From Macrostomum lignano (Eukaryota), in assembly GCA_002269645.1 (NCBI GenBank), contig NIVC01004151.1, positions 1 through 57,721 on the forward strand: 57,721 bases of DNA, given 5' to 3'. The translations under genes were made by a program, and so were the position numbers. This document shows positions 1-57,200 of this stretch, piece after piece. Below the pieces are notes generated by a model. The model saw nothing but the letters and a program-made list of their open reading frames with translations. It searched no databases and was not told where the DNA came from. Position 1 is the stretch's first letter, and every line of letters begins with the position of its first letter.

Positions 1-228
1 TATGTGTTTGCATAGCTCAACTCTGCCGCAGGCAAAGCCATGGGAATTCCGTAGACTCCTAATGAGAGTAATAGGCACCTGTGTTCCATAGGGGTAGGCC
101 CCTAATGTGAATACATAGCTGCATGTGTTTACATAGGAGATATTTGTATATAAACCAGAAAATTTGTTTTCACAAATAATAAAATTTTTGAAATTCTTGC
201 TCCGTTACATCGTAATAACTAATTAATA

Positions 229-408
229 ATGGTCGATATTGGAGAAGGCTACAAACTTCAAGTACAAGAGTATGAAGGAGTACAGTTTATTGCGATTCGG
301 AAATTTTATCGACATGGCAGCACAGCAAGTTTAAAACCCGGCGTTCCCGGATTTAACCTCAACATCCGACAATGGGAGAAGTTGAAAGAACGAAGCGAAC
401 TCTCGTGA
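229..408 (+). CDS. PC4/Sub1-type ssDNA-binding domain (59 aa ORF, not in the ORF track); first domain of a frameshifted tandem-PC4 gene
   Basis: MVDIGEGYKLQVQEYEGVQFIAIRKFYRHGSTASLKPGVPGFNLNIRQWEKLKERSELS* matches the PC4 pattern (human [26 protein letters not shown]...KPGRKGISLNPEQWSQLKE). Confidence 0.8.
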   Translation: MVDIGEGYKLQVQEYEGVQFIAIRKFYRHGSTASLKPGVPGFNLNIRQWEKLKERSELS

Positions 409-971
409 AGGCGGCCCTAGGCGGGCAACAGAGGATCATCAAACTCGGTTTTGATAAGTTTGTTGAGGTTAAGAACGGCATCATCTGGCTAAGACGGCTT
501 CCAGAAGATTGCTGCGAAGAATTTTTGAAGCGAAACACTGTGGCCTTGGCACCAGCTCTGTGGCGAAAACTGTGGGAGCAGGCTGCATGGATCGACGAGC
601 AGCTGTCTGCCCCACGCCAAATTTCTGATGTGTATGAGCTGGAGTCGGGATCTTCGAGCGAGAGAAACGGTGATGATGATGACAACAGCAACAAGGACGA
701 CACCATGCGGCTTGCGAAGACTGAGGATGAGGGCGTCCAATCAAGCACTCTACGCATCGACGATGAAGTGGTCACATCAACGCCTCTACCGGTGACAAGA
801 GCTGCAGCTGGCTTTATCCCAAAGCAGGATTCGGATTTGCTGCAGGACCCAGTCTGGTATCGCTTCCGGGCTGAAGCAGCTGCGGTCGAGAACGTCAGGA
901 AGCGCAAGCAACCATATCCGCTGCGCAGGCAGAACGCCATGAGACTGCGCCTCAATGAGGATGAGGAGTGA
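372..971 (+). CDS. Second PC4-like domain plus acidic/low-complexity tail; continuation of 229-408 in the -1 frame
   Basis: IKLGFDKFVEVKNGIIWLRR...KRNTVALAPALWRKLWEQAAWIDEQL fits a PC4 repeat. Joining the frames at ~403 gives QWEKLKERSELVKAAL, colinear with PC4 QWSQLKEQISDIDDAV. Confidence 0.6.
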   Translation: MGEVERTKRTLVKAALGGQQRIIKLGFDKFVEVKNGIIWLRRLPEDCCEEFLKRNTVALAPALWRKLWEQAAWIDEQLSAPRQISDVYELESGSSSERNGDDDDNSNKDDTMRLAKTEDEGVQSSTLRIDDEVVTSTPLPVTRAAAGFIPKQDSDLLQDPVWYRFRAEAAAVENVRKRKQPYPLRRQNAMRLRLNEDEE

Positions 972-2550
972 AGAAGAAGAATAAGAAGTGCTTTGAAGAA
1001 CTTTGGTGACTGGTGACATACTTAAATTGGCTCATTTAACAATTTCTATAATTAACATTGCTCATTTATCCAGAAAACTTAATTAAGTCTCTCCATGTAA
1101 GAAAATCATGCAACTTATTGTTTCTTATCCGCTAAAAAATATAAAAGCTTCTTTTCATAAAAAAATTGTTTTCCTTTGTTCTTGTGCTTAAGAAAAAAAT
1201 TAGACTGTTGACTTTTGTTTCTTGAGAAAATGGAAAAAAATTATTTGCTCCTGGCCAACCAGCTAGTTTTTCAATTTGCTCAAAGCTGCTGCATCAAGTT
1301 AGAGAAGAGGGTGGGCATAAAAATTGAAAGAGCATTGAACAGTGGCTCAATGAGCAAACCGCGAAAAGAACTTAAAAAAATTTCATTCTTTCTGGCAGGA
1401 ATGAAACTGGCAGGCTTTCATTCAGCTTGATTTTGATAATGGAAAAGATCTACTACAACCCTGCTCAGCCTGCCAGTTTCAGGCTCAGGCTCGAGTGCCA
1501 GCTCAGTTGTCTGGCACTCGTGGCAAAGCAACCAGCGACTTATAATGCAGCTGTCTTTTTTGTTATGGAGCTTTAACCCACCGAGCTCACATGAATTGCA
1601 GCTGATGCACACCTCGTGCACGTAGGATGGACACCGAGATTTATTCATTATTTAAAAATCTATGAGAAATTTAGTTTAAAATAAAATTTAAATTTAAACT
1701 TCTCATATGCACATATTTAGCCTCTTATATACCCACTTCAACCAAATCTGTGTTAATAAAAACATAGCCGCTATGTTTTCAGCTTTGCTATGTTTACAGT
1801 CAGCCACCCAATGTCCAATGATTTCATCAGCGCATCCAGGTATTGAGCCCTTGTTAAATTCCCGCACGCCCCGCTAAATTCTTTTGAATACGCCGCCAAC
1901 TTTACCCCACCCAGTCGAGGGTGGCAATAAAACTACTGATAACTGAGCACTCTCTCCTTTCAGCAACAAAGCCGCCGCCGCCGCCAGCTCCCAGACAGCG
2001 GGAGAGAGAGAGGCTTGGCTACCACTATGTTTGTTTACAGAAGTTTGTTATTACCGATAAAATTATATAATAAAGTATTAGTATAATACTGAATACAATA
2101 AAATACCGCTGATATTTGCCAATCGTTCAACACAATTTCTAGAGATTCCCCTAGCTCGCCTCTGTGCATACTTGCGGATTCCCCCATGAGGTGCCTATGA
2201 ACTCTCATTAGGAGTCTACGGAATTCCCATGGCTTTGCCTGCGGCAGAGTTGAGCTATGCAAACACATAGGCGCCCTTCTGATCCGGGCCCACGGAATTT
2301 CCGTGGCTTTCCCTGCGGCAGAGTTGTGTTATCCTCTACTACTCCGGTGCCCCGCAATCCTGGCAGAGCAGGAGTCCGTCAGGCCGAAACGATGTCGGAC
2401 CTCGGCGCCCAGCATGGAAGCACAGGCTCGGAGTTGGCAGGCAGCTGTGTGCTCGGCCCAACTTGGAACTTGTTCGCTCCCAGGCTCTGCGGCGCGCCAT
2501 CTGACGCGCCCTGCTCTAACTGTGACTGTGCATGCGGGGTCGCATATACT

Positions 2551-2840
2551 TTGTTGTTTGTTGTTGTTGTTGGTGTGAAAAGTCGGCTAGGTAGGCCGGT
2601 GGCATGACGCTGTCATCAAGGCGAATAGCGGCCTTGGCGGTACTACTGAGCGAAATGGCAGCCGAGGTTTGCGGCAGGCGGGCTGCGTGATTTGCGGTTC
2701 GGTCGCGGCTTCATTAGCGGGTATGCCACAGTGGGCAGGGACCCAGGCGAGGTCGATGTCGTTGTAGTCGCAGGTGCCCAGGTTGATGAGGTTGTTGATG
2801 ACGCCAGCAGATAGGCCGCTGTTCCTTGCTGTATACATCC
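2551..2840 (-). mobile_element. Decayed non-LTR retrotransposon fragment (RNase H C-terminus) with a (CAA)n tail
   Basis: DIDLAWVPAHCGIPANEAA, then after a frameshift DRTANHAARLPQTSAAISLSSTAK, a typical LINE RNase H end. (CAA)n at 2551-2573 on the minus strand. Confidence 0.7.
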
Positions 2841-3519
2841 AAAGGGATTTATCCTTGAATAAACTAGCTCGTATACATGTACTCGTAGCTTAATTTTGAC
2901 AGCAATATCATCATCTCAATTAAGCGACCCCCTGCGAGAGCCTTTTCATCTCAGCAACTCCCCAATCATGCAGCCTTGACATCTCAGCCATACCCCATGA
3001 GCCTTAATAGCCGGACAGCTCAGCGATTCTACCTGTGAGACACAGCATTTCATAAATATCTTCCAGCTTTTCAGTCAGAGCAAAATGTTTTACCTTGAAG
3101 TACACCCGATCAAAAATACTTTCTTTCCTAGAGTTTTTTAATATTTAATCCTATAAAAATGAAGCAATTTCTTAGTAAAATTACGTGTACCAGCGCGTTA
3201 TCAATGCGCATAGAATATGCTGCAAAACCAAACGAAAATCGGTTCCCGCAGTGTCATGTTAAACCAAAGTTCTCAAGCACAGATGATACAACAATATATT
3301 GTATATTTAAAGCAGTGAACTTTGACAGCTTGGCTTTTGAAGACTGCTTCTCGGAAAAGTTTGCCAAAATATACAGCAGTATACGTTCATGTAGGGTATT
3401 GAATACTGGCTGAAAAATCATTGGCTATATGCAGGGGTGGGGGAGGTGGGGGTGGCCGATGGCCTCCCTTGGGTACCTCTGTAGTAGCTGCGGCGGCCCG
3501 GTATTGGCGCCCTTCTGAT

Positions 3520-3590
3520 GTTGGTGCCCCTGGTGTTAAGCCCCTGGTGTTAAGCCCCTGGTACTAGCTAAAGCCCCTGGCACTAAAGCC
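3520..3590. repeat. Short array of a 15-bp repeat family (GCCCCTGGTGCTAAA)
   Basis: Same unit as 36507-36586 and, in reverse complement, 56640-57160. Confidence 0.7.
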
Positions 3591-3844
3591 CGGGTCCGGG
3601 GCCCCTGCACGATGACGCCCTTCCGAGGAATGGCACCTCAAGTTGACCCCCTCGCGCTGGCGCCTTCAGAAGACGTGCTTTATCTAATAAAAAGTCCTGG
3701 CGACACCTGTGAATACATAAACTTTATTTTAATGTCTACATTTTAAGTGACAAAACGAAGTGATGCACTACTACAAGTAATACCTATTTAGCGTTTGCTT
3801 AAAGGCGAATCGCAATTGAAGTTGCAGTTACTAATGGCACATTA

Positions 3845-6800
3845 TTAGCTGTTGAAAGTGTCTTTCAGACTGGCAGTTTGCATTGGAATGCAGTCTTGCA
3901 GATTTTGTTTGAAGTCGTCAAGACTGCGCACTTCAATGCCCTGCAAAGGATATATACGAGTATGTACACGAGTACAATTAGGGCAATGGTTGAAATATTG
4001 ATCAGCACTTACTGCTAGTTTATCCTGTTAAAGCTTTACGCTATTTTTACTTAGATGACGATACACTCAGATTTTTTAATTTGCCTGAGAGCCTAAAGGT
4101 ACTGTATACCTGTATTTATTCATAACTACACGCCGAAGGCAACATTTCCAGTTTAAAAAAACAGAAAAGCACATGTACACTCGTACAATGCTGCCGGCTC
4201 ACCTGATAGGTAGCATAATAATCGTCCTGAGCATTAAAGGTGAACTGCTGCCTATTGATTTTGTGAACACTCAGCACACGCCTGTCTTGCGAACCCTGTT
4301 TCAGCCATTTCTAAAATATATAGTTTACAGTGATTACATGTAATACAGGTATGTACTGTGAGGGCTCATTGGCACGATGGGTTACAATGTAAGTGGGAAG
4401 TTTTTGATTGGACAAATCAAATAATCAAATCATCATTTATTTGTACAAGCACTAGCTGATGAACAACTTTGACAGAAATTGTACATTGGGGCAGTAGTGG
4501 AAGGGCTGGGTAAATGTACATTGGGGCAGAAAGGAAAGGAGTCGAAGGACTGAGCAACAATATGTGCATTGGGGTAAGGAGTGGAAAGTCTTGGAATTAA
4601 GCACATGTACATCGGGGCAGGAGTGGAAGGGCTGGGTAAATGTACATTGGGGCAGAAAGGAAAGGAGTCGAAGGACTGAGCAACAATATGTGCATTGGGG
4701 TAAGGAGTGGAAAGTCTTGGAATTAAGCACATGTATATTGGGGCAGGAGTGGTAAGGGGCTGGGCACATCTACATTTGGGTAGAAGTGGAAGGACTGGGA
4801 CATGTACAATAGCCACACAGTACGAGCTATAACGACGTTATAGTATGTATATTGCTGGGAAAATTTGTGCCAATGCGTCAAAGTCTTGAAACTTTAAACG
4901 TTCACTTCGGATTATCGAACGCTTACTAGTGGGTAAACAACTAGACAGCTCACCTTCCAATAATTGTAAAGATCCTTTTTGCTAATTCTATCCAGAATAG
5001 TTTTGACATTGGTGTCCAAACTATGGGTATCCCAGCTGAAATCGTAGTCGCCGCAGGTGATGTGTCGCCAGTACAGCTCATGCTGCCTGTTTAAATTTGG
5101 CGCAGTAAACAGACGTGTCGCAAGCTGTTGCACTCGACTCTTCATACCCGCCAGCTGCTCCTTGGTTATGGAATCCACTGTTTTACCGACGCATGCGATT
5201 ACCAACTCGATTGTTGTTTCAATCTGCGTGCAGATGTTTAGCAACAGGTCAATATTCATGCAGTAAAACAGCTTGCTACATGTCATTCTGAATGTAAATC
5301 CGCAAGAAAATACAGTAGCAAAATATTCTGTCAGCCAAGGTCTCAAGAAACTGGGGCACAGAGTCAAAGGGCGTGTCTCTGAATCGTCCACCGGCAGTTA
5401 AAGAAACGCCGACTGAGAATGCCGTGTCCTTGCTGTGAATGCATATATCTACTGCATCTAATACCTAGAATAATTGCATGCAGAAGGCAGGTTGTGAGCG
5501 CGCAGGCACAACGCTTTCGACGACATGGTTCCACGGCCAATGCTCCGAGGCAATTCCGAGCGCGCCAATACTGTACGCAGGCACCCATGCACTCATTATA
5601 CACACGCTCACACAGAGTGCACAGCTTGACCTTCTAATCGTCAGGCATGTGCACTCTCTGCGCCTTGGAAGTTGGTCCTCATGGCTGTGAATCGCACGAC
5701 AGCTCTTCTAATGAGAAGTTCAAACCAAGAGACTTACCGCAACGGGATGCGACTCGGAGACTAGCTCAATGACGATGCAGTTGGCATTGCAGCCAATCAC
5801 CGTGTCCCACCTTAAATCGCGCTTTGTACAGTCGGGCAGTTTGGTACAGAGTGTCAGAGCTTCTTTCAGTAGCCACAAGCAGCAATTATGCCAGAACCGA
5901 CGGAAGAAGAAGTCGTCGTATTTTGACGCTTGCTTTTTTAACCCTCCCGATATCGCAGTCGGCATCTGAAGCAGCAGGCCGCAAACCGACTTGGTCAACG
6001 CAGCGTCGCCTTTCTTCAACCTCGTAGTCCGGCTGGTAAGTTCGATGCTTCTGTTAGTAGCGAAGTTCAACCGGATGAAATGGTGACTGCCTCTTGGTAG
6101 GAGTCGCTCAGAACAGCGCATAAAAAATGGATCCAATCGAAACGTGTCCGCTGGACGCCGCGAAAGTGGTGGAAGAACAGCTGTAATTGAGTCAACCAGT
6201 GAGATGACTTGCTCAGCAGTGAGATTGCCCAGCGCCAGAATCTCAGCATACAGTTCTGGCCGGCTGGGCCAGTTCTCGCGTTCCAGCGGAGTGGCATGAG
6301 CGGGATTGGAAAAGTGATGCGCTATGAAACTTGACGGATTGATTTCCACTTCTCGGTCTGGCTTTTGTGCTATGAGAGGAAAACATTGTGCAATTATGGT
6401 TGAGCTACAAGTCAGTGCGACAGTTTACAATCAATGGTACCTCACTCACCCAGCGTTTGCGTATCCAAGGACTGATAGTCTCGCTGGATGTGTAAAAATC
6501 CAGCCAGATCCAAGCGATTTGCAATCTGGGATAAGTCTGAACAGGGCTGTAATGAAAACTTCTGCGCTCTAAGATTTCCAATGCGCTCCTGTGCAAAGGT
6601 GAACGAAATGTTCAAAATTAATTTGAATGCAATGAATGTAATTTTAAATTTAAAAAATAACTTTGATGGGCTGCATCTTAAATCCTGAGCCGCTGGACCC
6701 TAAGCACATACTGTACGCAGGCACGCAGTCATAACAACCGCTCACACAATGTTTACAGCGGCCCTGACTTTCTAATTGTCAGGCACGTACAGGGGCGTCG

Positions 6801-9800
6801 CTACCGGGAGGACAGGGGGGGGGGGAGGACATGCCAATGCCTTGTCCCCCCCACCCCATCTTCGTTGACCTGTAATGGAAATAAAAAAATCGCTTCAGAG
6901 CGACAAAACATAGCGCCTGCGGACAAAAATGGTGCCTGCGGCGCTAAAATGAGTGCCTGCGGCGCTAAAATGGGTGCCTGCGGTGCTATAATGAGTGCCT
7001 GTGAACCAAATTGAGTGCCTGCGGCGCTAAAATGAGTGCCTGCGGTGCTAAAATGAATGCCTGCGGTGCTAAAATGGTCGCTGACGACACCGATTCTGAA
7101 AAAATGTACATATAGTAATTTAGTCGTGTACATGTACATTTACAATTCTTGGCTTTGTCCCCCACCATAAAATCCATGGCAACGCCCCTGGGCATATACA
7201 CTCTCTTTGCCTTGGGGGTTGGCCCTCATGGCACCACACCTCCCGGTCAATCTTCCGACCTTCTACGGAATCGAACCAGGGGTCGTGTTGCGCGAGATTC
7301 AGACGCATTATAACTGAACTTCTCTGCCCACAGTGTTTTAAGGCAGTCTGCCAAAGGAAGACACACCTGGTTGAAGTAGTTTAAGGGAACTCGCAGCTCT
7401 GCAATGCGACCCAATGCGGCCAACAAAAGGGCCGGTAGAGGCTCGCTGTGACCGCTGCAGCACACCTGGATGCCGTTGCAGCTTCGAGAGACGCTCAGCT
7501 CAAGGTCGGCTTCAACCGCTTGCATTTTCAGATCGGCCAGCTCTTCAGAAAATAGATTGGCCAGAATGCTGATCTGCAGAGACGAGGCCAGGGCGAGCCT
7601 CACAACGTCAACTGGAGGCAGCAGGTCAACGGATATGTAGGCAAGTTCGGTTTGGAACCGGTCATCTTGTCGGAACCAGAGATTAGTGCTGGATGAGCTG
7701 CCGTCTAGTGTACTTTGGCGTTTGATTTTTCGAGGCCCGTTAGGCTGTGGGTTTTAATTATCGTTTTATACCGCAGATACTACATGATGAATACGGTGAA
7801 CTCATTGCTCATAGCTCATTGGCCCATAGAGTAGAAAGCAGTTGAGTAGAAAGCTTCATTGGATAAGACTCGTTTATTGGTCCAGCTCGCTTTAACCGTA
7901 GCTTAAATTTTTTCTTGAACACGTCTTTTCACAAATAGTCTTTTTACCTCCTCTCTAGACCTCTTCAGCCTAACGCTTTCATGCAATGCATATTCTCAAT
8001 GACGCTGTTTAGTGCACATTACGTCTGCATCAATTAGCAAGCTGTAGACGTCTACAAGTCACTACAACTACGGTTCTTTACATAAAATAGCTATCACATT
8101 CTCGCTTGCTACTTCCTGACTGAAATTTAAGGAACTAAGCTGGCATGTCTAGTAGTCCGTGATCTATCGATTATAGCAAATGCGGTTAATGTCAGTATGA
8201 CCAAAAATATGACCGCAGTCAAAAATTTATTTATTTACTGACCTGATTAGTTAAGTCTCGGGGCTTTAAACTAAAATTTTTGCACACAAACGGCCTCGGT
8301 CTTGGCCAGGTGAACACAGTGTCAATCTGACAGCTTGCAGTTGGCCATTCGGCTCTGCACAGAGCCAATAAGTTTTCAGACAGCTTCTCCAAATTGTAAG
8401 GAGCTATGCCGTCGGGCTGGCAGCACAGCCTTCCGTCGGGAGCTGAAGTTGATGTGTTGAAGTTGCGATTGTTGCTTCTTAACTACAAAATACATGATTT
8501 ACTATTCTTCGACTACAAAACCCTTTGGTCCCGCAAGAAACAATAAAGAGATTTTAGCGCTTTTTTGTTGTTGAAATTCTTGCAAATTTAAGTCCGCATG
8601 ATCAAGCGAAACTTGTGATGGCCAAGTTCTAATAAATCCATGTACACACTCTGTGTGCCTTGGGGTTAAATTGGTAGGACAGCCCCTAGAAAGATTCCTG
8701 GAACAAGCCCAAATTATGTAGACTAACACAATCGAAGCATGGTTTGTGTTGTGCAAGAGTCAGAAACGCTTCCGCTGAGCTGGCCTGCCTTAACAAAGTA
8801 AAGACAGCAATTCTCAACAGTTTTTAGACTCTCTGTTCGAAATTCATACGTTCGAAATGCATCTGACTCTTGCGCAACACCACCGGCTTGTGCATAAAAT
8901 TAGCGAGAAGGGGGTTGCAATGCGTACACGATTTACGCCTTCGAGAGCCAGAGGCACAGAGAGTGTACATGCCTGACGATTAGTAAGTCAGGGCCGCTGT
9001 ACACTCTGCGTGAGCGTGTGTATGAGTGTGTGTCTGTGTACAGTATTGACGCTCTCGTATGTACGTGCTCAGGAGTCAGCGGAATGGCCAGAATTGCAGC
9101 GCTGGTTGTGGAACGATGTCGCCGAAGGCGTTGCGCCGTCCCTACCTACATCGCTCCTGCGAAGGTTTATACTTTTTATAACCCAAGTCTCACAGCTGAA
9201 TAAGCATACGTGCTCCGTATGCCAGTCCAAGTCGGAAACGAACACTCTGCACTGGTCCACAGTCAGACAAGCCAGAAACCCGTTCATTTCCTCGGCAGAA
9301 TAGCTCGAAAGCAAGTGCCTGGCTGAGAGCACATCCGCGATCTCGTACCGGTGCAATCGAGTCGCGATGTTGAACTCGTCATTCACCAATGGCAGGCGTT
9401 TTAGCTTCAGAAAAGCAGACCAATCGTCAACTTCAGGTAGGAAATGCGCCCGTCTATCTAACCTGACCTCATTGTGCAGCTGTTCGAAATGCTGCGCCTG
9501 ACTGCGGATCATTGCCAGGTAGCGGAAGACTGCACTAATTATCTGCGAGTCAATGAAAGTAAGTTGCGAAGAAAAAATTAGGAAATAAGTTTTTATAAGA
9601 GATCGCCTAATGAAGAGTACGAAGATACTGAAGCGATATTAAAGACACAGAAACAGGTCCTTAGCTTATGTCGAAGCTTATGTGAAGCTCAAAGTTTTAA
9701 TATTGATCTCAATTAGATTTCCGCCCTTGATAAATTTAACCAAACGTACCAAGTCTTCTGTTTCCACAGTATACTTCGTTGTTTCATCGCAGTGAAGAGC

Positions 9801-25308: not shown

Positions 25309-28300
25309 GGTAGCTTGCTGCCATATCTGGACCGCAGCGTCGAGCTGAGTAACGGAGTGCAAGCTTATCTGATCAGTCAGAACAGTTTTGGCGGCATTTT
25401 TAACCATAACGGTTCGGTTTTGACTATCAGCATTGGTGTGGGCCACCTGCAGGACCCGCCCGATTGCAGAGGCCTGGCACGGCTCTGCCAGCGTCTAGCT
25501 ATCTCTCGAAAGACATTAAAATTAAAATCAATTTATAATGAAAAGATGCGCGTTTTTGAAGCTCACACTGAGTACAGCGTTTGCATGGGGGGTTTCACGG
25601 AAATGCCCGTGATTTTAGAGCAGCTGGCGGCCGACATACTAAGACCCGAGTTTAGTAGGTATGAAATCGGACGAGCGCTGATGAGGGGAATGCCTGATAG
25701 TCCTACCGATTGTATACAGCCTGTTGAGAGGCTGCAGCGCTGCGCTGGCAATCCAAACCATCAGTTTAATAGGCTGCCTGACGAGCGGCTAATTACCAAC
25801 TGGACTGAGGAAAAGCTGCTGGACCAATTGACGCAGTTTCACAGCCTCTACTACTCTGGAAATTTGGTGAGGCTGGTTGTGGAGGACTCGCGTTCGCTCG
25901 ATGACTTGGAGGTGAGGGACGAACTAATAATAGTTATGCTGGATTGCATTCTTTAAAATTGAGTACAATTTTGAGTACAATTGGCTACGATTTCAGGCCC
26001 TAGTTTTGGCTACTTTTGGCCAGCTTCCAGACGCATTTGCTAATCGGATTCTGTTCGGTACGCACCCGTTCGATGGAACGAAAATGGGAGTCAAGGTGCG
26101 TTATTTTTCATGGGAAAGCATTCAAGTGCTCGGTACTAGAAACTCGTCGGGTTTGCCACTGACGTCGGGTAGTGCAGAAACCTAGAATTAAGCTGGCCGC
26201 ACACGGAATCAAATCGTCCTGCATGTAGGTGTTTTAGACAAAGCCAAGAATTCTGCAAGTACATGTACACGACGAAATTCCTAAATGTACAATATTTTCA
26301 GATCCGGTGTTGCCAGCACTCATTTTAGCACTGCACACTTAATTTAGCGCCACAGGCACTCATTTCAGCGCTGCAAGCACTCATTTCAGCGCCGCAGGCA
26401 CTCATTTCAGCGCCGCAGGCACTCATTTCAGCGCCACAGGCACTCATTTAATTGTCGGCTTTAATTGTCGCCATGCAGCAAAAATTATGCCCCCCAGATC
26501 TTTTACTGGAGGGGACATGTCCCCCCTGTCCCCCCCCGTTGGCGACGCCCCTGCGTAGGCCGGTAAAAAGGGAAGTCTTATTTGTCACATCGATAGCTAG
26601 TTTATTTTGTATGCTCTCATAGCGCTAAATGAAGTTTTACCATAGACTACTTCGGTCGAGAAAAACCCGGTTCCTTGAGAGCATACTAAATGCTTTAGCA
26701 ATACGGCAGATATACGTTCCTTAAACCATGGGGCCTCCCGCCGGCAGCACAGCTTCCGCAGCTCACCATCGCAGCCACCTGCAGCTGCACTAGTGTTTAT
26801 CTGTGGCCAGCAGCGCACCCGCAAACTCCCACAAGGTTGTACTTTACCAACCTCTAGCAGATTTCTAAGAAAATGTAGTGTAGCACCCTGTTACTCCAGT
26901 TGGAAAACTGTAAAATTAATCCCTGAGTTTTTACATTGCATTCCTTATACTCCATTGCAAAAAAACAGATTCGAAGTAGGGGCGTCAACTTGGACGAGAT
27001 TAGATTTGTCTTCCCTGTGCCAGATCAGTCTGATCTGTTTGAGACCTCGCCAGACTTGTATGTGAGCTACCTGTTCGAAACATTATTTGGAAAACTCTCG
27101 GATGCATATTCAAGACAACGAGGAGAGCTACCGGAAATTCTTCGCCGTTGTCCAGTTGCCAATCTTTTAGACTACGGCTATACTGGCTTTGACTCCTATC
27201 AAATTTCGTTCAATACAACTTTTTGCCAGAAGAACTGTTCTGCCGAGATGGAGGACGAGGTACTCAGATTTTTTTTAAGCTCTCTCTCTCTCATTTCGTG
27301 ATTTCTTGATATATTTTTGTTAAACTTTTTTCTCATTTCAGACGATCAAGTTTGTATTTCGCTTAATAGCACTAATACGAAAAATTGGACCAAAAAAATG
27401 GCTGCATGACGAAATTAGACACCAAAGGCGAACAAAACTTGCTAAAAACTTTGAAGATATCCTCTATCGCCGTGCTAACATTATAAACGTTTTGGACGAA
27501 AATTTAAGCGTTGCATCTCGACTACTGAGATTCCCCATTCACAAATTAATTTTCGCTGGCTATCTGCTCAACGAATACTCGCCTCGAGCAATCGAGGACT
27601 TTCTGACTTGTTTGTCGCCCGAAAAATGCAAAGTGTTCGTGTCGGATCTGAATCGCAAAGGCGAAGCTTCAAGTAAGTTATTAGGAGCGCAGGCAGTAGT
27701 AAAAACCTACATGTAGTTTATTTAGAAAAAAATAACTCTTTTCTTTGTTGCTGTCTTCCCAACCGGAGGGCACATATTGCTAGTCTAATTTTTGATCATC
27801 TTACAAGAACCACGCACTAGGCTGGCATTGAGGCCCATTCTACAAACGTACTTTCAGTTTGAAACACTCTGACAACACTTCATTAAATCAAAGAAGAAAC
27901 AACTGCAGTTGATAAAATAAAATAAATTGATCATAATTTAAGCGTTTCATAGTAATTCCGCAGAATCGAACTAAAGGGTCATATAATACACTATCATACA
28001 CAGGTGTAATGCTAACTCAGTAACTTGTATACCCTTCTATCTCAGACGAGCCGTCCAGCCAGGCCAAAGATGCATCTCCGCACAGTGAAGAGGAATTTTC
28101 GCCAGAACTTCTAGCCGCCTGCTCGGCACCTTGGCCTGCAAACGACTGCGAATTGGAGAAAGAATTTGAAATGCCAGAGCCGAATCCGTTTGTGTGCACC
28201 GACTTCAGTCTGAAGCCCCGAGAAGAGGTTAGTCGACACCAATTTATTCTGTTTTGCATTTAAGAGAATTTAGCGAATTTAGATTTGAGAAATGCAGCTG

Positions 28301-33828: not shown

Positions 33829-36800
33829 ATGACCGACTCCAAGCAGACTAATTTGCAGCCTCTTGTGCTGCACTCTCGGGTGCTTTCGCGTTTCGAAATT
33901 GATACGCCATCGCAGTACTTAAACCATTACATCCGCCAGCATCGGGCCATCGAGCTGCCCAACGGCGCAATCGCGTTTCTGTCTCATAAGCCGGACGACT
34001 TTGATGACGACAGCAGCAGCAGCAGAAGCAGCTCCGATATCGGGCCTGCAAATATGAAATCCGGGGCTGACGATGAGTCGAATGTGTTCTACGACAATGT
34101 CGAAAATGATACGACCAGCTGCGACAAAGAGTCCTCAGCCGACTGCAGCCTGCAGAGAAGCCGATTCGCTTTGGTGTGCTTCAGCATCGGCGTTGGCAGA
34201 CTGCACGAGCCGTCCGACTGTCGGGGCCTCGCCGAACTGTGCCTTCGATTGATTTTTTTCGCCTGCAATCATCCGCAGATGCAGAGTCTCGAGAGCAGCT
34301 TTGACGATACCACTGTTCAGACTCTAGACGAATCGATCTGGAACCAAGAATCGCACTACCACGCTGAAGTATTCGATGACCGATCCGAGTGCAGCTTTGT
34401 GGTCGACTCGGACGTCCTGCCGGCCGTTCTGCGGGTAGGTGTTTTTGCAATTACGCTCACTTGGCGGGGGTTGCAGCCTAATGGTTAGAGCGTCGGATTC
34501 ACGACTTGAAGGTCGGGGGTTCGATTCTCGATCCCACTGGAACAATTTGTGTCCTTGACCAAGACACTTTGAGTGCCAGCATTAGCTGGTGTAATTGAGG
34601 GTGTGTGTGGCGATCCCCCAATCCTTTGAATGAACAGCCGTACGCAGCCTTCAGATGCACCACGCAATTGCTGCGGCTGAGCTGTCAGTTGCACATCTGC
34701 CCATTGGGGCATGCAATTACGAGTAGTTTAACACAGATGTAATTCGTATTTTACTGAGAAAAACAAATCAATGTCAAATGAACTAAAATTTAATGCTACC
34801 ATAGATCTATTATATTCTAGCTTATAATGTATAATAATAATGTATATAGTTACATGTAGGTTAAATCCAGAAGTCATGTTAGTGCTCAGGGGTCGCTTGT
34901 TTAAGACCGAAATTTCATAACGCCGGAAGCAACTGCATGGTCCTTCACAAGATCGAACTATCTACTCTATCTCACCTGCTCTATCTCACCCTTGATTCAC
35001 ACCAGCCAGCGGAACCAGTTAAGATCAGTAGCAAAGTTAGGATGAATTCGAAAAAATAACAAGTGAAGAATAGATGTTAAACCCTCGCGTTAAGTATAAT
35101 AAATTTTCCTCACGCAACCCCTTAAGAGTTTAATCATCAGATAACCCAGACTCGCAATCTGGCTGATTCCCACGGACCCTACACAATCGTCCGTCATCTC
35201 AAACAACTAATTATTAAATGTAGTTGAATCACCGCCCCACATAGAATACGTTCATAAAGACCCTTTAAAGTGCAGTTAGACTTTTAAGCAGCCTGCACTA
35301 GTCCTTTACAATGCAGTCACCAAGCACGGGTGGCTTTTTGTAAGAGTATGTCTGTTAACAACTGCTACACTCCACCACATAATAGTAATAATAATATTTG
35401 ATTACACCTGCCCCAATTGGGCCAGATGTGCATCCTGAAGGCTGCGTACGGCTGTTCAGTCCAAGGACTGGGGGGTCGCCACACACACCCCAAACTACCC
35501 CAGTTAATGCTGGCAGCCATTTTACAGCTGGGTGAACTGAACCAATGCAAGTTAAGTATCTTGCTCAAGGACACAGATCGAGAATCGAACCCCCGACCTT
35601 CAAGTCGTGAATCCGTACTCCACCACGTTCTGATAACACTGCAATTTTTCTAATTCCTTAACCTAAATCCTATTCTTAATGGTCCCTCAAAAAGTCTCTA
35701 AATTATATCAGATTAAATATGATCCTTACCCATACTAAACTACAGAGCCTAGGCGCCAGCATAAAGTCTCCAGAATTCAACGAAGTCTACATTGAACGCG
35801 AGCAGAAGAAACTGCGCTCAAAATGCCTACGTGAAGGCCTGCCACCGTTGGACCTTCTTGAGCGCAGTTCTGGAAATCCGGACCATCCGTTCAACCGCTT
35901 GGTGCTGGACAATGCGAATACAGTGGCCTCAATCGGCAGCGAAGACGTGAAAAAGCGACTGTTTGAATTTCACGCCAAGTATTATTCGGCTAAGCTATTG
36001 CGGATGGCTCTCGTGTGCAGCAAACCGCTGGACGAATTAGAGGTTAGTCTCTTTTTTTAACGAGTATCATTATATAGTTATTTCCAATTGTATATCCATA
36101 CAAGGGCTGTGTATCTAACATAGCAGTGGTAAAGACCAAGACCCAGGTTCTGTGCACCCAGTGTGCTTGTGAATGTTCTACACAAAAGCATGTCCAATGG
36201 TCCAGACTAGTTAAAAGTCACAGATTAGCCGCTTTGCCAACCTCACATTTCAGGAAATTTTTGTTGACGCATTCGAAAGTCTGCCCGGCGAGCCCGTTCC
36301 TTGCATCAGATTTAACTGTCATCCGTACGATCGTTCGGAGACTGGGGTCAAGGTAAAAATTTTTGCGTTTTTGCTTTTTTGCCCATCGAAATGTTTGTGT
36401 TTTATTTTTTTATTTACTTTTTTATATTATTGAGTCAAACATACTCATAAACACAGACACATAGACAGTTCTCTAATTCACTAATAGACAGTAATCTATA
36501 ATTTAGCCCCTGATGCTAAATCCCCTGATGCTAAAGCCCCTGATGCTAAAGCTCCTGGTGCTAAAGCTACTGGTGCTAAAGCCCACATGACTACGTCACT
36601 GTAGGAGTAGCTTTTTGCTGCATCCTAATTAACACAGCTCAAAATGGTAGCTACGCGCTAAAGTTTCTGGTTCTTCAAGAATAATAGTTTTTTCAATAAA
36701 AATACTAACAATGTACCTAGCGCCCTTTCTATGATCATCTGCAAGACACTGCAACTAATCTAAAAAATAAGACATCTTCATCGACGACACTTACTTACAG

Positions 36801-50800: not shown

Positions 50801-53794
50801 TCTGTGCCCCCATGGCTACATGTACGCCACCACCAACAAATTCTAGGAGAAATGGTGATAAGACATTGAAAACCTATCAACTCATTCTCTAGGTTCGCAT
50901 CAAAGGTAAATCTCTCGGTGGAATTTACATTGTGTTCGCACTGCCCGACCAGTCTACTAAGTATCTGTCGTCGCCAGATTTATTCTTAACCTTTCTGATG
51001 CACGTTGACGAGCGCGGCGGGTTGCAAGACTGTCTGCACAGATTCGGACTGGGCTATTGTCAGTGCCGACTGTTGCCTAGCGGCAATCTAGGCTTTGATT
51101 CGTACTGCATCGCCATCAAAGGCATGTGTAAAGTTCGCGATGCGGAGAACAGAGTGAGTAGATCTATATGTGCTCAGATTATATAAAGATTGGTCAAAAT
51201 GCATATTAAATAGTCTCGCTGTAGAACGGAGAGGTGAACTTAGGTACGCGGAGTGGGGCTCAAAGTAAAGCTCGAATCACTGTGGAAATCTTACCAGACC
51301 AGTTCGGGACACTCGGCAGGGTTTCATGGTAGGAAGTTTATCAGACACATCACGAACTAGCTGGGACACTTACGAACAACTATGCGCTATCGTGAAAGGG
51401 GTTGTCTTGCGATTCAGAGCCATGAGGCTAATCCCCAAGGTACAGAACGTGTACATAACCTGACAAATAAAATATCAGGGCCGATGTACACCCTGTGTGA
51501 GAGCGTTTATGAGTTCCCAGTGCCTGCTTACAGTATTGGTACACTTGTATGGGATCAGGAGTCTGCAGAGTGGGCTGAATTGCTAAACGGCTGGTTGTAG
51601 GACGATGTAGCCAAACGCGTTGCACCATAATTAATGAATAATTAACAATAAATATATGCACTTGTTTCTGACCCGTGTAACGAATCAATACTAGACTTCC
51701 ACGTATTATACATTTTCATGTACACCTGTTATATTTAGCGCTCCATTTGCCAACACGCAGGCAATTACAGCAGTGTTCCGCTACCTGGCCTTACTGCGCG
51801 CCGTTGGCATTAACGAGCTTCAACGTAGAGAAATTTGTAAAACGCACGAATTGACTTATAATCCATTTAGTTTGACCGAGTTCGGTCCGCCGCCCGAGTG
51901 CCTGCCGCGGCGCATGCAGCGATATCCGCTCAGAGACCTGCTGGTAGCTCGTTTTAAAATGTCAAACACCGGGTCCGGCGTGCTCGTGGAATTCCTTAGT
52001 AGCTTATCACCGGATCGCTGCAAAGTTTTTGTTTCCGATACCAATGCCAGCAATAGGGAAGGTGCAACCAGTCAGTGTAAGTATTTTTGCCATTACAGTT
52101 TGGAAGTGACAAAAACAATTTGAAAAACGTTGGCCATATATATTATACTTCAGTTGGTTGATCAGATGTTGTCAGCACTCATTTTAGCGCCGCAGGCACT
52201 CATTTTGGCGCGGCGGGCACTCATTTTAGCGCCGCAGGCACTCATTTTGGCGCGGCGGGCACTCATTTTAGCGCCGCGGGCACTCATTTTGGCGCCGCGG
52301 GCACTCATTTTGACGCCGCGGGCACTCATTTTGGCGCCGCAGGCACTCATTTTGGTGCCGCGGGCACTCATTTTGGCGCCGCGGGCACTCATTTTAGCGC
52401 TGCAGGCACTCATTTTAGCGCCGCGGCACTCATTGGCGGGGGCACTCATTTTGGCGCCGCCACATTTTGGCGCCGCGGGCACTCATTTTGCGCCGCGGGC
52501 ACTCATTTTGGCGCCGCAGGCACTCATTTTGGCGCCGCCGGCACTCATTTTGGCGCCGCAGGCACTCATTTTAGCGCCGCAGGCACTCATTTTAGCGCCG
52601 CGGCACTCATTTTGGCGCCGCGGCACTCATTTTGGCGCCGCAGGCACTCATTTTAGCGCCGCCGGCACTCATTTTAGCGCCGCAGGCACTCATTTTGGCG
52701 CCGCAGGCACTCATTTTAGCGCCGCGGGCACTCATTTTGGCGCCGCAAGCACTCATTTTGCGCCGCGGGCACTCATTTTAGCGCCGCGGGCAGTCATTTT
52801 GGCGCCGCGGGCACTCATTTTGGCGCCGCGGCACTCATTTGGCGCCGCGGGCACTAATTTTGGCGCCGCGGGCAATCATTTTGGCGCCGCGGGCACTCAT
52901 TTTAGCGCCGCGGGCACTCATTTTGGCGCCGCGGGCACTCACTTTAGCACTCATTTTAGCGCCGCAGGCACTCATTTTGGCGCCGCAAGCACTCATTTTG
53001 GCGCCGCGGGCAATCATTTTGGCGCCGCAAGCACTCATTTTGGCGCCGCGGGCAATCATTTTAGCGCCGCACTCATTTTGGCGCCGCAAGCACTCATTTT
53101 AGCGCCGCGGGCACTCATTTTGGCGCCCCAGGCACTCATTTAAGCACCGTTGGCGACGCCCCTGCCCCTGCCCTTCATCTGACCCCACCCCCAACTAGAG
53201 ATTAAAAGCTTTGTAATACATCGGTATTGGCGCAAAAGTAGAGAACTTTATAATCAATATCAATATACTGTAAATATTCGTAAACAAAGTAGACATCGTC
53301 ATAAATATATAGATGATGTCAAGACACAAAAATGGAGTCAGAACACAGATTTTGGGGGACGCAAAGAGGTACATTTACGTGGGCATAAATAATAAAGAAA
53401 AAAGGGTAAAATTTAAAAGCAACGAAGAATACACTGCAAAAACTTTTTTACTTTTTTTACAAAGGGTCTAAGTGTATTCGGCCAAGTACTATTAGATTAG
53501 CTTCTTGCCACATAACTAAGTTTAGGTTTTCACGAGCGTGAATGACAGAATCATAAGGCCAGTTGAAGTGTCAGTTATCGATAGTATCATTTTTTTCACA
53601 GCCCCAGACAGCAGCAAGCCGGAGAGCGCGTCAAGTTTACAGTGGAGAAAATTCCATCGGAGCTCCTGTCGGCTTGGGCCGCCAGCTGGCCGTCGAAGTC
53701 GGAGTTCGATGCCGACTTTATTCTGACACCGATCGGTCCCAATCCGACGCTGCCTCGTCCGCATCGATTTTTGCCCTGGAAAATTCCCTCGGAG
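47804..53794 (+). CDS. M16A module H: N-half only, probably spliced to I
   Basis: Exons 47804-48179, 49067-49566, 49648-49746, 50893-51153, 51761-52076, 53602-53794 (1 nt short at ~53620). HxxEH is replaced by ELCQR, followed by the IDE-like GSKKYP. Confidence 0.75.
48585..48893 (-). mobile_element. tRNA-derived SINE copy
   Basis: Reverse complement of head, core and tail. Confidence 0.75.
50287..50744. mobile_element. Possible MITE with CAC...GTG terminal inverted repeats
   Basis: CACGTCAGTAAAACAGTTT pairs with AAACTGTTTTACTGCCGTG; no clear TSD. Confidence 0.45.
52170..53165. repeat. Expanded 21-bp minisatellite of the hAT-like MITE, ending at its terminus
   Basis: About 45 copies of GCACTCATTTTGGCGCCGCGG, then TTGGCGACGCCCCTG at ~53150-53164. 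Confidence 0.9.
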
Positions 53795-54252: not shown

Positions 54253-57200
54253 TTCTCTACTATTCGATCAGAGTCTTCAACGTTGATAAAATCTCGTTGC
54301 AACGATCTCGGGGCACCGGTGTCGCTCGAATACGCTACGACAAGGTGCAACTGCTTGGAGTTAACGAACGGCGCCCAAGCCATTCTGCTGCACAGCGAAG
54401 GTCTTGAAAATAAATCATTCGTCTGCGTCAGCCTTGGCGTCGGTCGGTTGCACGACCCACCGGACTGTGCGGGACTGGCTCAGCTGTGCCAGCGCCTGAC
54501 TCTGCTTGAGTCGAAGAAGTATCCAAACATAACCGAGTGCTTGCACAATCTTCTCTATATAAACAGCTATCAAGGGTCGCCGTACTACGCGACGAGCGTT
54601 TCCGACGACCAGACAACTTACCGGTTCGAAATCGACAATTCATTCTTACATGAAAGTCTAGACCGTCTTAGTGCGGGTATCCTGAGCCCTGAATTTACCG
54701 AGTCTAGTCTTACCCGTGAGCAACATCAGAACTTCTACAGTTGCAAGATTTCTGCCTTGGATTGCCTACAGCGCAGCTCGGGAAATTCAACTCATCCGAT
54801 CAATCACCTGATACAGGGCAATAATAAGACCGTGGGTTTGCTTGAGTTCAAAGAGCTGCACAAGCATCTAACTAGCTTTCATTCGCGGTACTACAGCGCT
54901 AATCTGCTGCGTGTAGCAGTGTCTAGCAGCCACAGCATGGAAGACATAGAGGCAAGAGATCATTTTTATGTCACTTTTTTAATTGAGTCAGGGGTGCTAA
55001 ACAAACAGTTTAATGTTTCAACAGGCAATGGTTCTCACAGCATTCGGTGGAATGCCGAATCTGTCAGTATCGCCGCTGTCCTGCTATACTCACCCGTTCG
55101 AGGGCTCTAAGTTGGGCGTCAAGGTAAGCTTTATCTCTCTCATGGTCTCAATTACCAGGACCACTAGAAATTGTGTCGTATCAGAATTTAGCACTTACCG
55201 TCTATGAAAAAATCTAATTGAAGGCTAAATTTCGCTCAAATTTGCGATCGTCGTAATATCGATCGTAGGAGGTAAGAAATTGTCGAATAAGTGATTGAAG
55301 ACGATAGAACGTAACTGCTACGTCCTGATGCAAACTAAGCTTCTAGTGATCATTCAAGATTTTTACAGGGCTTATAAATAATAACTTTGCATTACCTAAC
55401 TTGTCCAGATTCGAGGAAAGTCATTAAGCCTCGCGGAGCGCTGCACATCGTGTTTCCTCTGCCCGACCAGACGGAGTTGTACAAAACCTCACCCGATCTG
55501 TACGTTAGTTACTTTCTCAACAGTGACTGCGGCGGCAGTTTAAACGCCTGTCAGGATCAGCTCAATATTGCAACAGTATCCGCCGGGATGCAGAACTCCG
55601 GTTCGCTAGGATTCGATTCGTATTGTGTGACAGTGTTATTATCGAATACTACTGATCTAAGTAAAGCTGATCTGATTAAAACTGAGAACAATGTGAGTAC
55701 TTTATAAACAGAGCAGGATTATTTACAAAAAACAAGTTAGTCGGGCCTTTGGACACTGCCGAAAATAAAGGTGGCAGTCTCTCTAGCCATGACAGATGAA
55801 GGCAGTGCAGGTAAAGGCCGGTTCACATTACCACTAATTGCTATGCTGGTCAAAGATTGCCCAAACCAACAATGCACAGTCGATTCAGGTTCATTTAAAA
55901 AATAAATTTGAGCAATATTTTGTCCCCAGAGTTACTGATGGTACTACGAAGTGGTCTTCTAATAATATTGTAACTTTAAATTTCTTACATTCTTCGGACG
56001 TCCAATACTTAAGCTTATAACTTATTTTGCTTTTTAACTGTGTAGATAGACACTTTCAACAACCTTCACCTATCAAACCATTTTAAAATCTGTAATAAAT
56101 ACTCGTGCTATTGCTAGCTATATTTTATTGATGTTAACGTGGACGAATCTCAACATTTTTAGGCAATAACAGCCGTATTCCGGTACCTAACAATGCTGCG
56201 ACAGCTGGAGCCTCGGGAGTGTCTGTTCAACATGGTCCGTCTTGCTCAAAGAAGGCTGTTCAATTTCGACCGCGAAGGCGAGTGCATGGCGCCGGGCAGT
56301 GAAAAACTCGACCCGTTGCAGCGGTTCTGCGATGAGTCGCTGCAGGTGCATTTGCAACGGTATCCAGTTAAGGAGCTGCTTACTGCTAGAAGTGGCGCCA
56401 AGCTTGAATACTCGGCACAGGATATCGCGGCATTCCTTCGCTTGCTTGTTCCAACCAACTGCAAGATTTTCGTCTCCGATTTTGGAGCAGATGCCGATCA
56501 CGAGTGCTCGTTGTTAAGTGAGAATTATTTCTGTTTCTTATGGTGTATTTTTACCGCAGCACCAATCTGCTCATCTTTCCTGGTGTGATAAACGCAAGGG
56601 CGTTGCCAGAATTCTTCTTTGGGAGGCTGAGTCGTCTGGGGCTTTAGCACAAAGGGCTTTAGCACCAGGGGCTTTAGCACAAAGGGCTTTAGCACCAGGG
56701 GCTTTAGCACTCTAGGGCGCCAGCACCAGGGGCACCAGCACCAGGGGCGCCAGCACCAGGGGCGCCAGCACCAGGGGCGCCAGCACCAGGGGCGCCAGCA
56801 CCAGGGGCGCCAGCACCAGGGGCGCCAGCACCAGGGGCGCCAGCACCAGGGGCGCCAGCACCAGGGGCGCCAGCACCAGGGGCGCCAGCACCAGGGGCGC
56901 CAGCACCAGGGGCGCCAGCACCAGGGGCGCCAGCACCAGGGGCGCCAGCACCAGGGCGCCAGCACCAGGGGCGCCAGCACCAGGGGCGCCAGCACCAGGG
57001 GCGCCAGCACCAGGGGCGCCAGCAACAGGGGCCAGCAACAGGGGCACCAGCACCAGGGGCTTTAGCACCAGGGGCTTTAGCACCAGGGGCGCCAGTACCA
57101 GGGGCGCCAGCACCAGGGGCGCCAGTACCAGGGGCGCCAGCACCAGGGGCGCCAGCACCAGTGTGTAAAGTACATTGCCATAAAAAATCCGTCGTATTTT

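Follow-up and report, generated by a model that had tools for sequence, protein, structure and literature searches.

Polinton replication has so far been inferred from gene content, and non-autonomous Polintons already exist as Repbase N-families. For vertebrate Mavericks, the accessible text of PMC8097293 gives 5'-(AGT)2//(ACT)2-3' as the commonest end motif and (AG)3//(CT)3 as the alternative, with target-site duplications (TSDs) that are 6 bp long and terminal inverted repeats (TIRs) of 46-1447 bp. According to the same text, the end repeat is tied to jumping-back initiation in protein-primed replication, the genes form two modules that point inward and have their accessory regions next to the TIRs, and the core genes listed there do not include a single-strand-binding protein. 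Adintoviruses are capsid-encoding Polintons of animals (PMC8502044). As far as the accessible parts of the following sources go, termini and TSD decide how a non-autonomous element is classed in Repbase (PMC4455052), Tlr1 is sometimes viewed as a non-autonomous polinton (PMC5499653), polB-less polintons in Pieris stay mobile (bioRxiv 2025.02.07.637071), and in anole the absence of non-autonomous Polintons was remarked on (PMC3014272). In the literature searched, we found no relevant paper on Polintons in Macrostomum.

Here we describe an element at the start of contig NIVC01004151.1 of Macrostomum lignano; the whole stretch of 57,721 nucleotides that was analysed is called the window. The element resembles Polintons/Mavericks in its right end, apparently of the (AGT)2//(ACT)2 type, in its TIR length and in its inward-pointing genes, and it differs from the vertebrate set in size, at 2.4 kb versus 12.7-24.6 kb (PMC8097293). 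Unlike autonomous Polintons, it has no genes for the protein-primed family B polymerase (pPolB), integrase, ATPase, protease or capsid. It lacks three core features of the autonomous Polintons and is not a member of that group. It would work like a non-autonomous Polinton if its ends are as predicted. With the Repbase N-families, Tlr1 and the Pieris elements it would then share Polinton ends, seen here at the right side, that come without the full replication module, and mobilisation in trans is presumed; it differs from Tlr1 and the Pieris elements in being much smaller, in having no capsid genes and in keeping a PC4-type accessory gene.

The element is probably Polinton-derived. This ancestry, proposed in an earlier note on this DNA, gained support on two counts that do not depend on each other: the right end carries the (ACT)2 motif, and a tandem-PC4 protein matches an adintovirus protein in fold. 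The features on which the argument rests are as follows.

1-80, plus strand: inner part of the left TIR, the mirror of 2189-2269 (79/81 columns match; blastn E 3.8e-33)
229-408, plus strand: piece 1 of the tandem-PC4 gene, the canonical PC4 unit (PF02229; human PC4), 43/53 identical to the related protein P0001
372-971, plus strand: piece 2 of the tandem-PC4 gene, in another frame, 107/218 identical to P0001 residues 50-266
1230-1430, plus strand: 66-aa ORF, no Pfam match
1402-1481, no strand: perfect 15-bp inverted repeat with a 50-nt loop (fold z -4.1, 0/200 shuffles)
1418-1648, minus strand: Cys-rich 76-aa ORF with paired CXXC and LxCxE, Oncoid-like by motif, no homologue found
1439-1576, plus strand: 45-aa ORF, first 14 residues MEKIYYNPAQPASF, lies antisense to the Cys-rich ORF; neither Pfam nor PHROG gave a match
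1492-1520: 10-bp hairpin after the 15-bp inverted repeat
1759-1779: perfect hairpin
2189-2343, minus strand: right TIR of 155 bp; its two 41-bp sub-repeats occupy 2218-2258 and 2292-2332
2338-2343, plus strand: (ACT)2 end motif, which fits 5'-(AGT)2//(ACT)2-3' (PMC8097293)
2344-2349, plus strand: predicted 6-bp TSD, CCGGTG, whose partner copy would fall outside the window
2344-2838, minus strand: decayed retrotransposon-like tail, the insertion target, with an RNase H-like fragment and then the putative first half of a CxxCG zinc knuckle

Terminal inverted repeats and the right junction

The window begins inside the left TIR, and the outer ~74 bp of this arm lie upstream of position 1. The 68 outer bases of the visible inverted repeat are identical, indicating that the element ends are young or homogenised. 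We found that the two arms diverge cleanly inside 80/2189 and enclose unique gene-like DNA, with no tandem duplication, and that they do not form a fold-back palindrome. The earlier note had described an element of about 2.4 kb, with a TIR of about 155 bp that contains internal sub-repeats and ends in ACTACT, and these points were borne out as far as the window reaches. Taking the left arm as the mirror of the right gives a predicted length of ~2,417 bp; the right arm measures 155 bp if the end motif and the junction mark its outer limit; two 41-bp units, 88% alike and 74 bp apart, were seen within it; and its terminal ACTACT is directly followed by CCGGTG. The left terminus is predicted to be AGTAGTAGAGG, starting ~74 bp upstream of the window and preceded by CCGGTG.

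The TIR length, 155 bp in the right arm with 80 bp visible in each arm, falls inside the Polinton range of 46-1447 bp. The window has 20 ACTACT on its plus strand (3.5e-4 per base), and the exact (ACT)2 hexamer of the right end lies 6 bases past the outer sub-repeat. A blastn search of the rest of the 57.7-kb window found 0 further copies of the element or its TIR, and no helper element. With a single copy seen, the satellite family suggested in the earlier note was not confirmed. The right TIR showed no special fold (z -1.0), and positions 1-4000 had no Rfam match at E<=1.

The word TGTTTAC, which we take to be a forkhead-type site, is present at 126, 1791 and 2032, that is, three times in the element versus 8 times in the other 55 kb. 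Two of the three element copies stand just upstream of the PC4 gene and of the Cys-rich ORF, and related CTATGT words are found repeatedly within the TIR and close to it.

On its right side the element abuts the decayed retrotransposon-like tail. The RNase H-like ORF in this tail (2838-2587, minus strand) matches Pfam RNase_H at E 0.02, below the cut-off, and its PDB matches to RNase H are weak, at E about 0.3 with unrelated ones among them. The minus-strand peptide LLCQDCGAPE ends at the element junction. Its pattern C..CG..E has a single occurrence in the six frames of the window, at 2365-2342, and is presumably what is left, as a first half, of the CCHC knuckle found in non-LTR elements with RNase H; this segment has no Pfam match. 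The presumed knuckle, cut at the junction, points to an insertion boundary no more than about two bases from 2343. Its last codon, for glutamate, takes in bases 2342-2343, which were assigned to the element. The element could therefore end at 2341, reading 5'-TAGTAG, a terminus of the TA..TA type.

The tandem-PC4 gene and its relatives

The earlier note had reported a PC4-like gene. A PC4 domain is indeed present: ORF 229-408 matches PF02229 at E 3.6e-8, with a score of 33.2 bits versus the curated cut-off of 25, and it matches human PC4 in the PDB at E 7e-6 to 5e-5. Its product carries the conserved IRKFY and KPG motifs. The gene itself, which exceeds one domain and is frameshifted (229-971), had been described too narrowly. 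From the PC4 fold and the IRKFY and KPG motifs, we infer that the tandem-PC4 protein binds single-stranded DNA.

ORF 372-971 has no Pfam match and encodes a degenerate second PC4 unit, an acidic linker and a conserved basic tail. Among 346 candidates, it matched two proteins, P0001 (49%) and P0002 (46%), and the N-termini of both match ORF 229-408 (43/53 for P0001). A tblastn search of the window with the relatives placed them on two adjoining frames, with the break between about 378 and 402. Because P0001 and P0002 are single chains that span both ORFs, 229-408 and 372-971 represent one frameshifted gene. The frameshift is either a true mutation or a sequencing error.

Other explanations of the two ORFs were considered. 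Two separate genes were ruled out, since the relatives are single chains. An intron is improbable too, as the alignment of the relatives runs straight through the break and leaves no space for it. A captured ordinary host PC4 was also ruled out, as the gene is tandem and about 30% identical to human PC4.

A profile search of 1.84 billion representatives returned 39 matches at E<=0.001. The set of relatives (n=15) consists of the 13/39 matches that cover the second unit, plus P0001 and P0041, and all 15 have both PC4 units. Among the other 26 matches, the five inspected are multi-PC4 proteins. A second-unit profile, built from 14/15 relatives with P0038 left out of the model, gave each of the 15 relatives at least 52.9 bits, and the other 26 matches 17.6 bits at most. 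PF02229 was found at E<=0.1 in 12/14 relatives scanned, once in each. The nearest relatives are 72-81% identical to the window pieces in unit 1 and 63-71% in unit 2. The four relatives with contig data come from contigs of 1.0-1.1 kb. The ESM Atlas gave PC4 clusters, the best at 0.85 and 0.89, which serve as leads only; where the source is known, they are mostly from molluscs and arthropods.

We also observed a conserved C-terminal module after the variable acidic linker in P0001, P0002, P0003, P0006, P0041 and the window (830-950). It reads DLxxDPxWY..R and then RKRK, with LRRQxAM in all but P0006, and it is predicted to form a helix and is likely a nuclear localisation signal.

The fold was modelled by AlphaFold with a 16-row alignment on the intact relative P0001 (not on the broken copy of the window). 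In this model, residues 1-126 mostly have pLDDT above 90, the lowest ten-residue block is at 79, and the chain forms two strand-strand-strand-helix units; with a 3-row alignment only, mean pLDDT was 47.6. Unit 1 agrees with human PC4 at rmsd 1.4-1.7. A Foldseek search of the PDB placed PC4 and MoSub1 at the top (best E 2e-3, rmsd 1.7 over 64), with no match at E<=0.001. VIA-align against 48,161 chains ranked Pur-alpha first (Z 10.2, 117 residues, rmsd 3.9), and MRP1/2 and Whirly proteins after it. As modelled, P0001 is a single-chain version of the PC4 dimer, or pseudodimer; in sequence, the internal repeat is only weakly supported (unit 1 versus unit 2 by profile, P 0.027). Unit 1 of the element protein is a PC4 domain, as in PC4/Sub1/p15, and the two-unit chain resembles Pur-alpha repeats I-II. 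It differs from PC4/Sub1/p15 and the PUR/Whirly proteins in that the second unit is degenerate and missed by Pfam, in that it is a single chain rather than a homodimer, and in its location within a mobile element.

PC4-like folds are common in viruses. In BFVD, the P0001 model matched MOSUB of a Branchiostoma lancelet adintovirus (A0A5H3CIS2) at E 1.5e-4 over 155 columns, with 15% identity and TM 0.38/0.50. This was the sole match at E<=0.001, among at least 500 at E<=10. The protein at rank 2 is unnamed (E 1.2e-3) and phage proteins come next at 3.5e-3 and above, which puts the lead of MOSUB over them at under one to two orders of magnitude. The match, at 155 columns, extends over more than one PC4 unit, and the proteins are of a similar size class (203 aa for MOSUB versus 246-272 aa). 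With an identity of 15% between MOSUB and P0001, the likeness is one of fold and does not make it an ortholog. Judged from the model, the fold match suggests a second link to Polintons, of moderate strength and independent of the end motif.

The main text of PMC8502044 contains no mention of MOSUB. In the readable part of its supplement the name occurs once, in a row of labels in Fig. S2 whose last three entries are MAEL, MOSUB and ITR; the layout text of this figure places MOSUB beside the ITR label, and the map of origin is not assignable from it. P0001 had no tblastn match in phage records, and PHROG gave only weak matches (E>=0.012). We found no description of a PC4-type gene in Polintons in a search whose range excluded most subscription papers, Repbase Reports and bioRxiv supplements. 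PC4, 'coactivator p15' and MOSUB had 0 occurrences in relevant papers among the matches listed, and in the literature retrieved on polinton and PC4 together, PC4 is an unrelated label.

Small ORFs and hairpins of the interior

The genes of the element point inward from both TIRs. We confirmed that the element has neither replication nor capsid genes, as the earlier note had stated: 972-2188 contains no ORF over 76 aa, and there is no core Pfam match. This absence of core genes shows that the element is non-autonomous, as had been suggested. Five ATG ORFs of at least 40 aa lie within 972-2188, the longest of 76 aa, and those scanned have no Pfam match. Among the element ORFs scanned, Pfam gave no match to polymerase, integrase or capsid. 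There is no gene for a protein-primed family B polymerase, given the length of the longest ORF in 972-2188 and the lack of a Pfam match; no rve integrase domain was found by Pfam among the scanned ORFs; and capsid, packaging ATPase and protease genes gave no match and have no room in the element. The beginning of the 45-aa ORF at 1439, MEKIYYNPAQPASF, may resemble the start of Polinton integrases.

The small Cys-rich ORF of the earlier note was found again, with 76 aa on the minus strand (1648-1418). The Oncoid genes of adintoviruses have LXCXE beside paired CXXC, usually with a CK2 site, and are usually located upstream of PolB, as described in the accessible text of PMC8502044. The Cys-rich ORF resembles them in having LxCxE and paired CXXC, and it differs in that the CK2 site after LxCxE is absent. 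Among 2000 dinucleotide shuffles, an ORF of at least 76 aa was present in 485, paired CXXC in 5, LxCx[ED] in 67 and both motifs in 0; the corresponding counts among 44 real window tiles were 31, 1, 2 and 0. Measured by the shuffles, the ORF is thus out of the ordinary. This motif test was post hoc, and the CXXC and LxCxE motifs have one Cys in common. The homologue search, over proteins of 41-133 aa, gave 1 candidate and no match at E<=10. The PDB held no match to the ORF, and neither did phage records searched by tblastn.

Perfect hairpins with stems of at least 10 bp are dense in the element: 3 were found (0.34 expected) versus 8 in the other 55 kb, about nine times the background rate of the window. 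The hairpins at 1402-1520 are a candidate internal junction site, or a candidate terminator between convergent genes. Around 1480 the plus-strand ORFs that start out from the left end run into the Cys-rich ORF, which comes from the right end on the minus strand; a deletion junction may lie here. Such a junction may have joined the left accessory region to the right one, as one would expect from the Maverick layout; the data fit this picture and do not show it.

Origin of the element

Our tentative reading, to which we give slightly less than an even chance, is a mobile, internally deleted, non-autonomous derivative of a Polinton/Maverick of the adintovirus type, about 2,417 bp long. A parent Polinton would have lost its core modules, possibly at a deletion junction near 1480, and would have retained its two ends together with the adjoining accessory genes. 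The (AGT)2 ends would act as origins for protein-primed, jumping-back initiation by the terminal protein/pPolB of a helper, and the element ends as attachment sites for the helper's integrase. This integrase would have placed the copy in a dead retrotransposon and duplicated 6 bp of the target. The tandem-PC4 protein would most likely coat displaced single strands during strand-displacement replication of the parent elements, or may alternatively serve as a transcription cofactor. Since the PC4 gene is frameshifted in this copy, it would be a passenger, or its protein would be supplied in trans.

The full-length alternative is that a complete Polinton inserted here and then lost ~14 kb in place, leaving a one-off fossil that never moved. 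Its ends and its gene link would equal those of the mobile derivative, and it fits nearly as well. The PC4 gene is frameshifted, the window has no second copy, and the hairpins near 1402-1520 could have promoted a deletion; moreover, 96% of the vertebrate Maverick copies described in PMC8097293 are defective. On the other hand, with TIRs that are near-perfect and a PC4 gene that is otherwise open, a large deletion would have had to follow soon upon insertion, and sampling should favour amplified short families over single remnants. We regard a fossil of this kind as rather unlikely. Less probable again is a non-autonomous element that moves by cut and paste and belongs to a different superfamily (IS3EU/GingerRoot or Academ, or a Pack-MULE-like carrier); the PC4-like gene would be its cargo, and the flank would have produced the (AGT)2 look by chance. 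Arrays of sub-repeats within TIRs typically bind transposase, which counts for such an origin, as does the fact that no Polinton core sequence was detected. If the glutamate codon belongs wholly to the retrotransposon, the end at 2341 reads 5'-TAGTAG, and IS3EU/GingerRoot elements have TA..TA termini and 6-bp TSDs in the accessible text of PMC10045372, the latter matching the TSD predicted here. However, the element has no transposase remnant and its cargo points to adintoviruses, being unlike host PC4, intronless and tandem in form, with an adintovirus protein as its best viral fold match. The exact (ACT)2 hexamer, at its short distance from the outer sub-repeat and with its low frequency, also argues against chance.

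Clean divergence of the arms around unique gene-like sequence, free of tandem duplication or fold-back palindrome, makes an assembly artefact at the contig end very improbable. A collapsed or mis-joined longer element would fit a window that begins within a TIR, and the lone frameshift could be a long-read error. Returning to the mobile derivative, a stronger form of it is that the element belongs to an active satellite or defective-interfering mini-Polinton family, which we consider doubtful. Here 2.4-kb genomes would be replicated, integrated and perhaps packaged by a helper, the lineage would keep a dedicated single-chain PC4-type ssDNA-binding protein, and the ~1-kb contigs with intact relatives would stem from expressed genes of this kind of element. 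In such a family, the tandem-PC4 protein may be, for Polinton replication, a little-noticed counterpart of the adenovirus DNA-binding protein.

The tandem-PC4 family, by its tie to adintovirus MOSUB, offers a concrete, small candidate for a Polinton single-strand-binding protein. If the element is a 2.4-kb derivative, it would mark the minimal cis sequences for Polinton replication and integration, namely the 155-bp TIR with its two sub-repeats. If it is a single in-place remnant, it represents ordinary transposon debris plus one under-described accessory gene family.

After about 3 kb the window has a different content. Several insulinase (peptidase M16)-like genes, diverged from one another and split by introns, stand in tandem at 4900-56600; 3/5 ORFs scanned match Peptidase_M16 (PF00675), and exon families recur 5-7 times. 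An 81-bp inverted repeat (34574-34654 and 35435-35515), 89% complementary and with its arms 780 bp apart, is a candidate MITE. The window also carries many minisatellites. Related GC-rich minisatellites of 14-15 bp are located at 3526-3562, 36505-36584 and 56639-57161, and a 21-bp minisatellite family, possibly a dispersed mobile repeat, is found in both orientations at 6902-7076, 26316-26449 and 52175-53149.
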